DNA of 64,000 bases. Source: Bryobacterales bacterium. GTDB lineage: Bacteria; Acidobacteriota; Terriglobia; Bryobacterales; UBA6623. A model generated the notes under the pieces. That model was given only the letters and a program-made list of their open reading frames with translations, searched no databases and was not told where the DNA came from. Positions 39,793 through 44,859 of the stretch are shown here, piece after piece; positions within the stretch are counted from its first letter, which is position 1, and each line of letters opens with the position of its first letter. The stretch covers positions 578,083 to 642,082 of the forward strand of contig CBDFIW010000004.1 of the NCBI GenBank assembly GCA_965248255.1, written 5' to 3'. The translations under genes and the position numbers were made by a program.

Positions 39793-41397
39793 ATGGCACG
39801 GGGACCAACGGTGAAAACCGGCGGCGGCGCAAAAACCGGCACCCATAGCGCCACCACGGGCTACGAGGCCGAGCTGTGGCGCATGGCCGACGCCCTGCGG
39901 GGCTCGATGGACGCAGCCGAGTACAAGCACGTTGTCCTCGGGTTGATCTTCCTGAAATACATCTCCGACGCCTTCGAGGAGCGCCATGCCGCCGTTCTGG
40001 CCGAATGGGGCGCGGACGCCGCCGAGGATCGCGACGAGTACACCGCCGAGAACATTTTCTGGGTGCCACCGGAGGCCCGTTGGACCCATCTGAAAGCCCA
40101 AGCGCGGCAGGCCACCATCGGCCAACTCGTCGACGACGCCATGACCGGGATCGAGCGAGACAACCCCGTGCTCAAGGATGTGCTGCCCAAGGACTACGCC
40201 CGCCCCGCCCTCGATAAGCAGCGTCTTGGCCAACTCATCGACATGATCAGCAACATCAAGGTCGGCGACGAGGACGCCCGATCCAAGGATGTGCTGGGCC
40301 GCATCTACGAGTACTTCCTTTCGCAGTTTGCAAGCGCTGAGGGGAAAAAGGGCGGCGAGTTCTACACCCCGCGCTGCATCGTCAAGCTGCTGGTCGAGAT
40401 GCTAGAGCCCTATCAGGGCCGGGTTTACGACCCCTGCTGCGGTTCGTCCGGCATGTTCGTGCAGTCGGTCGAGTTCATCGATGCGCACGCCACCGGCAAC
40501 GGCAATGGCGGGAGTCTTCCGCGAAGCGCCATGGGCGACATCTCGATCTACGGGCAGGAGTCGAACTACACGACTTGGCGGCTTGCGAAGATGAATCTCG
40601 CCATCCGCGGCATCGAGGGTCAGATCGCTCACGGCGAAAGCTTCCACAACGACCGTCATCCCGACCTCAAGGCCGACTTCATCCTGGCGAATCCGCCGTT
40701 CAACGTCTCCGATTGGGGCGGCGAACGGCTCACCGACGACAAGCGCTGGCAATACGGCACCCCGCCCAAGGGCAACGCCAACTTCGCCTGGGTGCAGCAC
40801 ATCGTCCATCACTTGTCACCGAAGGGTACGGCTGGCTTCGTGCTCGCCAATGGCTCGATGTCGTCTAACCAGTCGGGCGAGGGTGAGATCCGCAAGACCT
40901 TGGTCGAAGGGGACTTGGTGGACTGCATGGTTGCGCTGCCGGGTCAGCTCTTCTACTCGACACAGATTCCGGCCTGCCTGTGGTTCCTCGCCCGCGACCG
41001 CGAAAATGGCAAGTCCCGCGACCGCCGAGGCGAGGTGCTGTTCATTGACACCCGCAAGCTCGGCCGGATGGTCGACCGCACCCATCGCGAGCTGACCGAT
41101 GAGGACATCGCCCGCATCGCCGACACCTACCACGCCTGGCGCGGCGAGGAAGGTGCCGGCGAGTACGCCGACACTCCGGGCTTTTGCAAAAGCGCGACGC
41201 TGGAAGAGGTGCGCAAGCACGGCCATGTGCTGACCCCCGGCCGCTATGTCGGCGCGGAAGCACAGGAAGACGACGGCGAACCGTTCGAGGACAAGATGAA
41301 ACGGCTCGTCGCGCAGTTGAGGGAGCAGCAGGCCGAAGCTGCCAAGCTGGACGCCGCAATCGCCGCCAATCTCAAGGAGCTTGGGTATGGCGAGTGA
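39793..41397 (+). CDS. hsdM: Type I restriction-modification methyltransferase subunit
   Basis: [26 protein letters not shown] (motif I variant), ANPPF (motif IV) and LTPGRYVG. Confidence 0.96.
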
Positions 41398-42423
41398 CGG
41401 TTGGGTAGAGAACCCGCTTGAAGAAGTAATCGACTTTCGCGAAGGGCCCGGAATTCTGGCGAAGGACTTCCGCGAACGTGGTGTTCCTCTTGTACGTTTG
41501 GCCGGCCTCAATCGAGGGGCATCTCTCTTGGACGGATGTAATTTCTTGGACTCTGAGGCCGTTAAGAGACGTTGGTATCACTTCCGGCTTGCACCAGGAG
41601 ATGTACTGTTGAGCACATCTGCGTCTCTAGGCCGTACTGCCGTAGTGGGCGATGAGGGTGCGGGCGCGATCCCGTATACAGGGATCATTCGAATGCGTCC
41701 TAGAGATCATAGACTCTTTGCCCCGTTCATCCAGTATCTCCTCGAAGGTCCTGATTTCCAACAACAAGCCGAGATGGTTGGTGCAGGCAGCGTCATACGA
41801 CACTTCGGTCCCATGCATCTTAGGCAGATGACAGTGAGATTGCCCCCCCTCCCCGAACAACGCGCCATCGCCCACATCCTGGGCACGCTGGACGACAAGA
41901 TCGAGCTGAACCGGCGGATGAACGAGACGCTGGAAGCAATGGCCCGGGCGCTGTTCAAGTCGTGGTTCGTCGAATTCGACCCCGTGCGCGCCAAGATGGA
42001 AGGACGCGATCCTGGCCTGCCGAAACACATCGCTGATCTCTTTCCCGACGGGCTTGTGGAGTCAGAGCTGGGGAAGATTCCGGAACGGAATGGTTGGGGA
42101 AGGTACCAGAACATTGGGAGGTGCAGCGGATACGAACTGTTGCCGAGCTGAGGGTCAGTAGCGTAGATAAACATACCAAGGAGGAGGAATTACGAATTCG
42201 GCTCTCTAATTATGTCGATGTGTACAAGAACGACCGAATCACTCAAGGGATGTCCTTCATGAGTGCAACGGCCTCACGAGACGAGGTTGAGAGATTCCGC
42301 CTTAAGCGAGATGACGTCCTCATCACGAAGGACTCCGAGGCTTGGGACGACATTGGGGTCCCGGCCCTTGTAACAGAGCCGGCCGACAAGTGGAAAATAT
42401 GGAAAGTGACCTACAAGACCTAG
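41387..42423 (+). pseudogene. hsdS: Type I specificity subunit: one intact TRD plus conserved region, then an out-of-frame truncated second TRD
   Basis: PPLPEQRAIAHILGTLDDKI and ESELGKIPE, then a frame break at ~42086-42087 into EWLGKVPEHWEV...; TRD2 is cut off near 42390. Confidence 0.85.
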
Positions 42424-44859
42424 TTGCAGTTCCTCGCGAGACTCTGGAGATAGAGCTAAAAGCATGGCTCGATCTTACAGATAAGGCCGTGCGCGCCAAC
42501 ATTGCTCGGCACGTAGCGGCATTGGCCAATCACGGGGGCGGCTATATGGTTTTTGGATTTAATGACGATCTAAGCCACGATGAAAATCGTCCGAACTCAC
42601 TGGAAAGTTATAGTCGAGATGTATTCGCGGGGATCGTAAGTCGCTATTTGACACCGACTTTTCACTGTGAGGTGACGATTGTTCAGGATAAAGGCGGCGA
42701 ACAATTCCCAGTCATTAGGGTGCCCGGTCATGGGCATGTGCCAATTGCTGCGAAGAAGAGTGGCCCCGATGATAACCGAGGAAAACCACAAGGTCTCGTG
42801 GCAGGCACTTATTACATTCGGAAACCGGGACCGCAGAGTGCTCCGATCATAAGTGTTGAGGAATGGGGACCTTTGATCAGGCGATGTGTCCTAAGCGACC
42901 GAGACAGATTGCTCAGGGACATTGCCGGCTTATTGAATCCCGCAAATTATTATGACACTTTTTGACAGTGTGGAGCATCTATATATGTATGGGCAACCCC
43001 AAAGGTGTGAAGCGGGATTTCAAGGCGCTGGAGAAGCGCCGTTTCGAAGCGATGCGGCTGCTCCACCAAGGCCACAATCAGTCCGAGACGGCGAGACGGC
43101 TGAACGTCGCTCGCCAAACCGTCAGTGAGTGGCGGCGGCAATACCGCGAGCAGGGTGCGGCCGGACTCCGCCAGGCCGGGCGCGCCGGACGCAAGCCGCT
43201 CCTCGATGCCGCACAACGCGAACGCCTGACGTCGCTGCTGCTGGAAGGCCCGGAAGCCCACGGCTTCCCAACGCCCCTGTGGAGCTGTCCGCGGGTGGCT
43301 CGGCTGACCGGAGACGAGTTCGGGGTCGCATACCACGCAGGCCACGTCTGGAAGATCCTGCGAGCGCTCGACTGGAGCCCGCAACGCCCGGCCGGAAAGG
43401 CGCGCGAGCGCAACGAAGAGCGGATCCGCACCTGGAAGCGCAAGACCTGGAAGCGCATTAAAAAAAAGCCCAAAACGAAGGCCGTACGCTCGTCTTCATC
43501 GACGAAAGCGGATTGAGTCAGAAGCCGCATCGCTGCCGCACCTGGGCGCCACGTGGCCAAACACCGGTGCTGCAGTTTAACTTCAACTGGGAGAAGCTTT
43601 CCGTCTCGGCGGGGCTGACGCTGCGTAACTTCTACTTCCGGCTCTATCCCGGTGCGATCGGCAAAGAGCAAGTGACCGACTTTCTCAAGGCGTTGGTACG
43701 TCATATCGATCGCCCGCTGCTGATCGTCTGGGATCGGCTGCCGGCGCACCGTAGCCGCCTGGTGCAAGAGTTCATCGAACTCTCCGAAGGCCACATCGCA
43801 ACCGAGTACTTGCCACCCTATGCGCCGGAGTTGAATCCGGTGGAATACATCTGGGCTTACTGGAAGCAGCACGAGTTGCCGAACGTCTGTCCGAAAGACT
43901 ACGGCGAGCTGAACGAGCGGGCCCGCAAGGCACTCCGCCGCATGTACCGCAAACCGCGTTTGATCACGGCCTTCTGGAAACAGTCTTCTCTTTGTTTTGA
44001 CTGACTCTATATTATGCGGGAGTCAATAGTGCAGACACCAGAGAAGCCTGAGCCAGCTGCTCAGAAACGATTAGAGGAATGGCATAAGAAGACAGAGAAG
44101 CGATTCCTTCAGTGTCTGTCACAGGCCAATGAGCTTCACTGGCCCGTGTCGATAAGAGAGAACCATTATCAGTTGAGCTACTTGATCTTTGCGGACGGAG
44201 ATGAAGAACTTCCTACGGATTCACTTAGCCAAATCCTGGAAGAAGTGAACAGCGAGGTACGAAGTACGGTGTGGACTGGTTGGAGCATGTTCTATCCGTT
44301 CAGCGATCCGGAGGTAGCACCTGCAGTCTATCCGGAGCAAGTCGATGGAACAGGAGGGGATGTACTCGAGGCCAATCTCATGGGTCTTCGAGACTTTGAC
44401 GTGACACTTCCAGATTTTTGGCGCGTAGCACCCGATGGACGCGTGACCCTGATTCGCGCTTACAGAGAAGATCGTCAAAGCAGCGTTGAGTCCTTGGATC
44501 GGAAGGCAGGCACCTGGCTCGCACCTGAAACGGTTGTTCGAGAGACGACCGAGCTTGTTGCTCATGCGAGGGCGTTGGCTAGACGATTTGAAATGGCAAC
44601 AAAGGTCAGTTTCCAATGCGGCTGGATGGGTCTCAAGGGCCGACAAATCTCTGATTTTGATTCAGTATATTGGCGTCCGCATCACATCGCGGGCGCCGAT
44701 CAACGTACGACAAAGGGAGAGTGGACAGTGGCTAGTTTGGGCGCGGCTTGGTCAACCGTTGTCGCGGACCTAAGTTGCCCAATACTTCGCCTCTTCGGAC
44801 TGGACCATTGTACCCAAAGTTTTGTTGAGAATATGGCGCCAAAGTTCGTGAAACTTTGA
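42399..44859 (+). pseudogene. Schlafen/AlbA_2-domain protein with an uncharacterised C-terminal domain (~454 aa), split by IS630 copy B
   Basis: RETLEIELK...ALANHGGGYMVFG is the AlbA_2 signature. Removing the IS plus one TA gives in-frame DIAGL-VQTPEK. Confidence 0.87.
42933..44026 (+). mobile_element. IS630-family element, copy B (near-identical to copy A)
   Basis: Same 1094 bp with TA at 42931-32 and 44027-28. Two differences seen by eye (29866/42974 and 30239/43347). Confidence 0.93.

Follow-up and report, generated by a model that had tools for sequence, protein, structure and literature searches.

Prokaryotic Schlafen nucleases (pSlfns), which are defined by the catalytic motif Ex4(E/D)xK, carry variable sensors and protect against phage; they have been divided into classes pSlfn1-55, and the examples tested include RorSlfn5, in which the Slfn domain is joined to an immunoglobulin-like (Ig-like) sensor and which cleaves tRNA when activated, and EcoSlfn7, a DUF262-Slfn fusion (Perez Taboada et al., Nat Microbiol 2026, PMC13056530). 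A context of mobile elements and defence islands has been published for pSlfns generally (PMC13056530). Another described system, CRISPR-associated Schlafen or Cash (CbCash, PDB 9ylu), is a Schlafen tRNase that cyclic tetra-adenylate (cA4) switches on (Nat Commun 2026, PMC13462974). Here we analyse a gene of this kind in a 64,000-nt stretch of DNA from a Bryobacterales bacterium (assembly GCA_965248255.1, contig CBDFIW010000004.1, positions 578,083-642,082 of the forward strand; hereafter, the window). The gene specifies an N-terminal Schlafen nuclease domain and an uncharacterised C-terminal domain of ~270 aa (the C-domain), is interrupted by an IS630-family insertion sequence (IS), and adjoins the remains of a type I restriction-modification (R-M) locus. 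The first-pass annotation had taken this arrangement for an R-M-guarded defence module. We consider it probable that the gene encoded a single-gene immune protein of the pSlfn kind, which was transferred as a gene-sized piece and later split by the IS630, and that the hsd genes are mere neighbours. The copy in the window is a pseudogenised member of the kind of protein described in 2026.

The protein resembles the pSlfns in being a single polypeptide with an N-terminal, single-lobe Slfn nuclease, in its Ex4(E/D)xK motif and accessory-domain fusion, and in being horizontally mobile; some of its homologues also have defence genes nearby. It differs from them in that the C-domain is not Ig-like, HisKinase, helix-turn-helix (HTH), DUF5929 or DUF262, having weak structural echoes of TATA-binding protein (TBP) and S-adenosylmethionine decarboxylase (AdoMetDC), and in that the window copy is a pseudogene. 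Cash has a homologous Slfn domain (matched by our family profile at E 1.8e-4) and a similar logic of effector plus ligand-sensing domain, but it senses cA4 through a Csx15 Rossmann-like domain and belongs to type III CRISPR loci, whereas the putative sensor here has a different fold; the leading neighbour families compiled for the loci of the homologues include no CRISPR genes. The nuclease-lobe fold and the catalytic carboxylates also match those of the mammalian SLFN11/13/14 and SAMD9 tRNases, although the mammalian SLFNs combine a two-lobed N-domain with a helicase, while in the window protein one lobe of ~175 aa is joined to an unrelated C-domain. Some TIR immune proteins (Thoeris/retron-TIR type) carry the C-domain of the window protein, with TIR as the effector instead of the Schlafen nuclease.

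When positions 42933-44028 are deleted from the sequence, codon 178 is followed directly by codon 179, the frame is kept and the product is a protein of 454 aa, as the first-pass annotation had anticipated. The rebuild is validated by its homologues: a search with the rebuilt protein gave 492 matches, more than 100 of which are full length (~455 aa, 50-86% identity) and align over 100% of the query, and in the alignment the IS is the sole lesion. The closest homologue, P0001, is 86% identical, and the nearest with a recoverable locus, P0003, is 77% identical (L074/L075). The AlbA_2/Schlafen signature reported earlier is borne out by a match to Pfam SLFN_AlbA_2 (PF04326; residues 14-141, score 29.3 bits, curated threshold 25.3), which according to precomputed annotation is carried by most homologues. 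The family profile also matches the N-domain of SLFN13 (5yd0, E 3.6e-6), and Foldseek aligns the N-domain of the window protein with the SAMD9 tRNase (9o0d, E 9e-6, template modelling (TM) score normalised to target ~0.5) and with SLFN13, 5, 12 and 14 (E 6e-5 to 3e-3). E14, E19, K21 and D56 are invariant in an alignment of 42 diverse family members, so that the catalytic glutamates, whose lack of conservation had been named as a possible refutation of the proposed module, are conserved. In the profile alignment E14, E19 and D56 fall on E218, E223 and D261 of chain 5yd0_A (rSlfn13), which we take to be the catalytic E205, E210 and D248, assuming an offset of +13 in the chain numbering. The earlier reading of the gene as one for a Schlafen-type nuclease joined to a domain that is uncharacterised is upheld, and the catalytic residues of the nuclease are conserved.

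The interrupting element has the features of the IS630 family, namely a DDE_3 transposase with an N-terminal HTH, terminal inverted repeats, which are imperfect (TATTGAATCCCGCA / TATTGACTCCCGCA), and a TA target duplication (42931-2 and 44027-8); a run of eight A residues is found at the junction of its two reading frames. It has been active recently, since a second copy in the window (29825-30918), flanked by its own TA duplication, differs from it at only 2 of 1094 positions (99.8% identity), and the earlier suggestion that the Schlafen gene was silenced by a recent IS630 is upheld. Megablast of the IS region against plasmids gave no match. The AlphaFold2 (AF2) model of the rebuilt protein (predicted local distance difference test (pLDDT) score 87.9) has a single disordered stretch, residues 180-187, and this is where the insertion point lies; because of this, the IS630 is judged from the model to have separated the two domains cleanly at their linker. 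A different IS630 (35754-36839, minus strand) and a frameshifted IS5-like element (36923-37694, minus strand) lie nearby.

The association of the family with type I R-M genes was assessed in 73 loci, obtained by scanning one genome per species. Type I genes were sought within 10 kb of the homologues by tblastn with the window HsdM and HsdS fragments and, among the open reading frames (ORFs), by phmmer with six queries, two each for HsdM, HsdS and HsdR. Type I components, namely hsdM/hsdS, were found at a single locus of the 73 (L043), and an N6_Mtase domain in one of the 265 neighbours at positions -2 to +2; no recurrent linkage of the homologues to hsdM/hsdS, which had been proposed as a check on the R-M-guarded module, is seen. 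When the window was compared by blastn with the three nearest relatives, which lie in three genomic contexts, only positions 42387-44861 aligned, that is, the Schlafen gene with 12 bp upstream and 2 bp downstream. The left junction of this block truncates hsdS and the right junction truncates a gene for a SOS-response-associated peptidase (SRAP), whose reading frame begins mid-protein immediately past the Schlafen stop codon. G+C content steps from 52% to 68.6% at the SRAP junction; as the first-pass annotation had recognised, the Schlafen gene is lower in G+C (51-52%) than hsdM (63.6%). The SRAP fragment has the Schlafen stop codon on one side and, on the other, a Sel1-repeat gene (45056-45802, minus strand).

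These comparisons indicate that rearrangement made neighbours of the hsdM/hsdS remnant and the Schlafen gene and that the two are not partners. The first-pass annotation had itself entered the caveat that the adjacency might have arisen by rearrangement, and with both junctions truncating the flanking genes we judge this to be the better reading. Adjacency to R-M genes in one genome is no evidence of coupling.

The R-M genes themselves are decayed to different degrees (Table 1). hsdM is intact, as reported earlier, and matches the PADLOC MTase_I model at E 2e-226; its homologues number thousands, the best 120 being 79-90% identical. What had been described as a one-TRD hsdS is, as far as its translated frames reveal, a decayed gene of two target recognition domains (TRDs) with two lesions and not a native gene of half size. 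Its first ORF spans positions 4-245 of the 446-position specificity-subunit profile (PADLOC); the frame is then shifted by an imperfect tandem repeat, and a TRD2 fragment follows in a second frame until it breaks off ~9 bp ahead of the Schlafen start codon, where it is cut off at the Schlafen cassette. The repeated TRD-start motif resembles a faulty recombination joint from TRD swapping. The best PADLOC matches of the second fragment are N-terminal, and we considered whether it could be the 5' end of a second hsdS; this is disfavoured, as residues 233-252 of the full-length HsdS of L074, at the position of TRD2, align to it. On either assignment hsdS is broken, and a complete HsdS with two TRDs and two conserved regions is absent from the locus. 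No TRD2 fragment was found by blastn upstream of the Schlafen homologue in any of the three nearest relatives.

The absence of hsdR, also remarked upon earlier, holds for the whole window: tblastn with one HsdR query (from L075) gave a best E of 0.2, and no candidate was recognised among the called ORFs, the longest of which is 1016 aa. Engineered half-HsdS proteins dimerise, and the R-M remnant could at most methylate, provided that the truncated HsdS dimerises as they do. In its present state the locus is without restriction activity and without an intact Schlafen protein. It is debris, in which the methyltransferase is left an orphan, the specificity gene is broken and an immune gene is split by the IS, and it illustrates turnover at the cargo ends of integrative elements.

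An indication of the earlier state of the locus comes from seven close relatives of the window HsdM whose loci were inspected. One of these, L078 (5021-12022), with an HsdM 90% identical to that of the window, has a complete operon of hsdM, hsdS (448 aa), a ThsB_TIR-like gene, 8xMP and hsdR, which probably shows the ancestral layout. Given this intact operon, the restriction of homology to the Schlafen gene, the truncating junctions and the failure to detect hsdR, the Schlafen gene replaced, or was joined to, a broken R-M locus to which it had not belonged.

Table 1. Features of the window at and around the split Schlafen gene
Feature	Position	Strand	Basis
tRNA-Ser(CGA), divergent from tRNA-Ser(TGA)	39280-39369	-	ARAGORN
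tRNA-Ser(TGA)	39477-39566	+	ARAGORN
hsdM, type I methyltransferase subunit, intact, 540 aa	39775-41397	+	Pfam HsdM_N + N6_Mtase, E 8e-109
hsdS 5' part, 256 aa: TRD1, central conserved region, first TRD2 codons; out-of-frame end	41381-42151	+	Translations
Imperfect tandem repeat of TRD-start motif (GKIPE.NGW, then GKVPEHWEV)	~42066-42120	+	Sequence, three-frame translation
hsdS TRD2 fragment, ~100 aa, frameshifted relative to 5' part	42094-42390	+	PADLOC Specificity_I, E 4.5e-29
Schlafen gene 5' part, residues 1-178, complete Slfn/AlbA_2 nuclease domain	42399-42932	+	Pfam, PDB profile, Foldseek
IS630-family element	42933-44026	+	HTH + DDE_3 domains, inverted repeats
IS630 orfA (HTH)	42962-43516		Pfam domains
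IS630 orfB (DDE_3)	43513-44004		Pfam domains
Schlafen gene 3' part, residues 179-454, linker + uncharacterised C-domain (276 aa)	44029-44859	+	In-frame rebuild, AF2
SRAP fragment, truncated at both ends	44860-45085	+	Pfam SRAP positions 102-166 of 214, from 44905

The C-domain has no model in Pfam, NCBIfam or PADLOC. Modelled alone by AF2 it folds independently (pLDDT 89.8, predicted TM score 0.89). Foldseek searches of PDB and BFVD suggested AdoMetDC, the spermine synthase N-domain or TBP as relatives of its fold, at E ~3e-3 and TM <0.3, which is too weak for any of them to be adopted; in the published scheme (PMC13056530) the C-domain may belong to the classes called 'TBP-like' or 'unannotated'. 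Among 1.84 billion representative proteins, each standing for a cluster at 50% identity, a profile search located the C-domain in 727, so that the clusters containing it number 727 or more. Twenty of these matches, mostly picked for atypical length, were scanned with Pfam and revealed three architectures. The majority are Slfn plus C-domain, sometimes with an extra N-terminal Xre/HTH_37; TIR_2 precedes the C-domain in P0196, P0200, P0298, P0184 and P0233; and in P0174, P0186 and P0209 an Xre-type HTH is joined to the C-domain in the absence of an effector. The motifs GWxM, WR..G..R..D, R..E..HA and F..W.GL..R are aligned along the whole C-domain in all three.

This coupling to two immune effectors, Slfn and TIR, and to a DNA-binding output supports a role of the C-domain as a sensor or regulatory module. 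Its mean column identity is 62%, as compared with 60% for the whole protein, and it contains the invariant polar and aromatic residues W309-R310, R321, D326, R349, E353, H357 and R383. Such unusual conservation hints at a conserved small-molecule or nucleic-acid ligand. We put forward tentatively, as a possibility that is open to considerable doubt, that the C-domain is a widespread, hitherto undescribed signal-sensing module, mounted on at least three outputs (Schlafen RNase, TIR and Xre-type DNA-binding), which would recognise one conserved small-molecule or nucleic-acid feature. If this is true, bacterial immunity would gain a new class of sensor, in which a single ligand would serve three effector types. 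This portable domain, common to TIR and HTH proteins, is the sole point of wider interest at the locus, and being shared by TIR effectors and HTH regulators it is a tractable candidate for the perception of a new infection signal. Among the Schlafen immune nucleases newly recognised in bacteria, the intact relatives make up a large and untested branch.

By analogy with RorSlfn5, EcoSlfn7 and Cash, we propose that the intact protein would have combined an N-terminal Schlafen nuclease effector, a flexible linker and the ~270-aa C-domain as sensor or regulator. Perception of an infection cue by the C-domain would switch on the nuclease, which would cut tRNA and stall translation, an abortive or translation-arrest form of defence; in this scheme the cleavage of tRNA, the action against phage and the part of the C-domain as sensor are predictions by likeness to the described systems. 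The gene would have arrived horizontally, as a gene-sized piece, at the cargo end of an integrative element linked to tRNA-Ser. There it would have taken the place of the 3' part of hsdS and of the sequence beyond, in which hsdR was presumably included. An active IS630 would afterwards have cut it in two at the linker.

The neighbourhoods of the homologues are mixed. The Schlafen family is patchily distributed across phyla, in variable mobile genetic element and defence contexts, and appears to have been horizontally transferred. Among the -2 to +2 neighbours PADLOC recognised the PifA, QatA, OloB, PD-Lambda-4, DISARM (DrmB/C), HEC and PD-T7 families, and Pfam recognised integrases, resolvases, Mrr, GmrSD and KAP NTPases together with many metabolic genes. 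These neighbours resemble the mobile-element and defence-island surroundings published for pSlfns (PMC13056530), and the relatives may often lie among defence genes, to judge from the scattered PADLOC matches, which were taken without a background rate. Clustering of the neighbours yielded no conserved partner gene, apart from one of 223 aa that occupies position +1 in eight sphingomonad or rhizobial loci (L012, L013, L014, L018, L021, L023, L028 and L041); it has no Pfam or NCBIfam match and is not present at the window locus. Olokun OloB-like genes follow the 223-aa gene in four of the eight.

Several observations count against a single-gene immune protein standing apart from R-M. Many homologues adjoin housekeeping genes, and PADLOC v2.0 contains no model for the Schlafen plus C-domain family. 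The C-domain is as conserved as the nuclease, unlike the fast-evolving Ig-like sensor of pSlfn5, and this conservation may mean that its ligand is a small molecule or nucleic acid, or that its role is enzymatic, and not that it recognises a phage protein. Two of the seven HsdM relatives are followed by a different Schlafen architecture, so that a looser affinity between type I genes and Schlafen proteins exists.

On another explanation the protein is no immune nuclease but a regulator or housekeeping factor, with AlbA_2 as a nucleic-acid-binding domain and the C-domain as the receptor of a metabolite or signal. Names used in the databases, 'AlbA family DNA-binding' and 'helix-turn-helix domain-containing protein', carry that sense, the C-domain occurs with an Xre-type HTH alone and is highly conserved, metabolic genes are among the neighbours of many homologues, and ~30% of pSlfn genes are without a defence neighbour (PMC13056530). 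Against it stand the invariance of the catalytic Ex4ExK motif and of the Asp, the fusion of the C-domain to TIR, which is a typical effector of immunity, and the patchy, horizontally transferred distribution, in variable mobile-element and defence contexts. We regard this explanation as unlikely.

An R-M-guarded module would be the native operon after a later loss of hsdR, and in it the Hsd proteins would keep the nuclease latent until a phage inhibits restriction. The model for such an arrangement is PrrC of EcoprrI (type Ic), a latent RNase whose gene likewise lies beside hsd genes. PrrC, an ABC-ATPase/HEPN-type nuclease, has intact hsdM/S and hsdR on either side and is masked physically by the R-M complex, whereas in the window hsdS is broken and hsdR is absent, and the Schlafen plus C-domain family does not co-occur with type I R-M. 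In favour of the idea, hsdM, hsdS and the Schlafen gene are adjacent and on the same strand. Moreover, P0003 is encoded ~2 kb from a complete type I system (L074/L075); in L074, however, small ORFs and an IS630 separate that system from the Schlafen homologue, and this IS630 is unrelated to the one that splits the window gene (no match by blastn).

Relatives of the window HsdM also lend the idea some substance by carrying embedded effectors. In L077 (9001-12362) and L080 (9001-12347), where HsdM is 85-88% identical to that of the window, an AlbA_2+HATPase_c_4 gene overlaps the hsdM stop codon by 4 bp, and neither hsdS nor hsdR is found nearby; this layout may be a recurrent methyltransferase-Schlafen pair. 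In L078 and L081-L083 the embedded genes vary, comprising ThsB_TIR-like plus 8xMP (between hsdS and hsdR), HNH_5 and SIR2_2, and HEPN/MNT-type pairs (NTase_sub_bind) occur between hsdM and hsdS in the type I operons of this HsdM clade (L078; L081-L083). The AlbA_2+HATPase_c_4 proteins are of the Schlafen-HisKinase(-wHTH) type (COG2865), which shares the Slfn domain with the window protein and sits directly after HsdM relatives in L077 and L080, but has a GHKL ATPase C-module and a recurrent linkage to modification-based systems, both of which the window family is without. Schlafen-HisKinase proteins embedded in BREX and R-M loci are described in PMC12839542 and in clusters 2 and 7 of PMC13462974, and an R-M-associated Schlafen cluster with unknown C-terminal domains is described in section 11 of the latter.

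The concept of an R-M-linked Schlafen protein is therefore real, in nature and in the literature, for other architectures, but the evidence assembled here does not extend it to the Schlafen plus C-domain family. Type I genes within 10 kb at one of 73 loci, homology that reaches no further than 12 bp ahead of the start codon and 2 bp past the stop, an hsdS both frameshifted and truncated right at the junction, an opposite junction that cuts the SRAP gene, and a missing hsdR all speak against coupling, and we hold it to be quite unlikely that the Schlafen gene at this locus was guarded by the R-M proteins.

That the split gene still functions, either as a two-component pair or through a free nuclease active alone, is very improbable: the IS lies exactly in the disordered linker between independently folding domains, the halves are otherwise undamaged and an in-frame ATG at 44014, inside the IS end, would open a 281-aa ORF beside the 188-aa first product (the nuclease plus 10 IS-encoded residues), but no natural split versions were confidently recognised among the homologues (short C-domain profile matches may be fragments), there is no evidence of a promoter or ribosome-binding site for the 3' ORF, and an unregulated nuclease would probably be toxic.

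The carrier of the preferred single-gene immune protein is an element integrated next to the two tRNA-Ser genes, both of which were located by ARAGORN where the first-pass annotation had placed them. By inspection of the sequence, AT-rich, foreign-looking DNA begins exactly at the 3' end of tRNA-Ser(TGA), and for this reason that end is likely to be the left border of the element. In calling it a satellite the first-pass annotation was plausible, in that a P4-type integrase (50345-51532) and a PrimPol/D5 primase (47355-49637) are present; the name stays a guess because no capsid or packaging genes were found in the element and no attR copy of the tRNA-Ser 3' end was recognised in a search allowing up to 3 mismatches (0 shared 13-mers). 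A tRNA-3'-like string (…GGACCCCCTCTCCGCCA) just outside the integrase, at 51660-51695, was rejected as the right border, since it matches neither tRNA-Ser. A second phage-related element lies elsewhere in the window (56029-62904), beside a tRNA-Pro gene (56029-56105), with a DnaG-zinc-ribbon/AAA_25 primase (58791-60098), an excisionase-like gene (60151-60384) and a terminase large-subunit-like gene (61741-62904), all on the minus strand.

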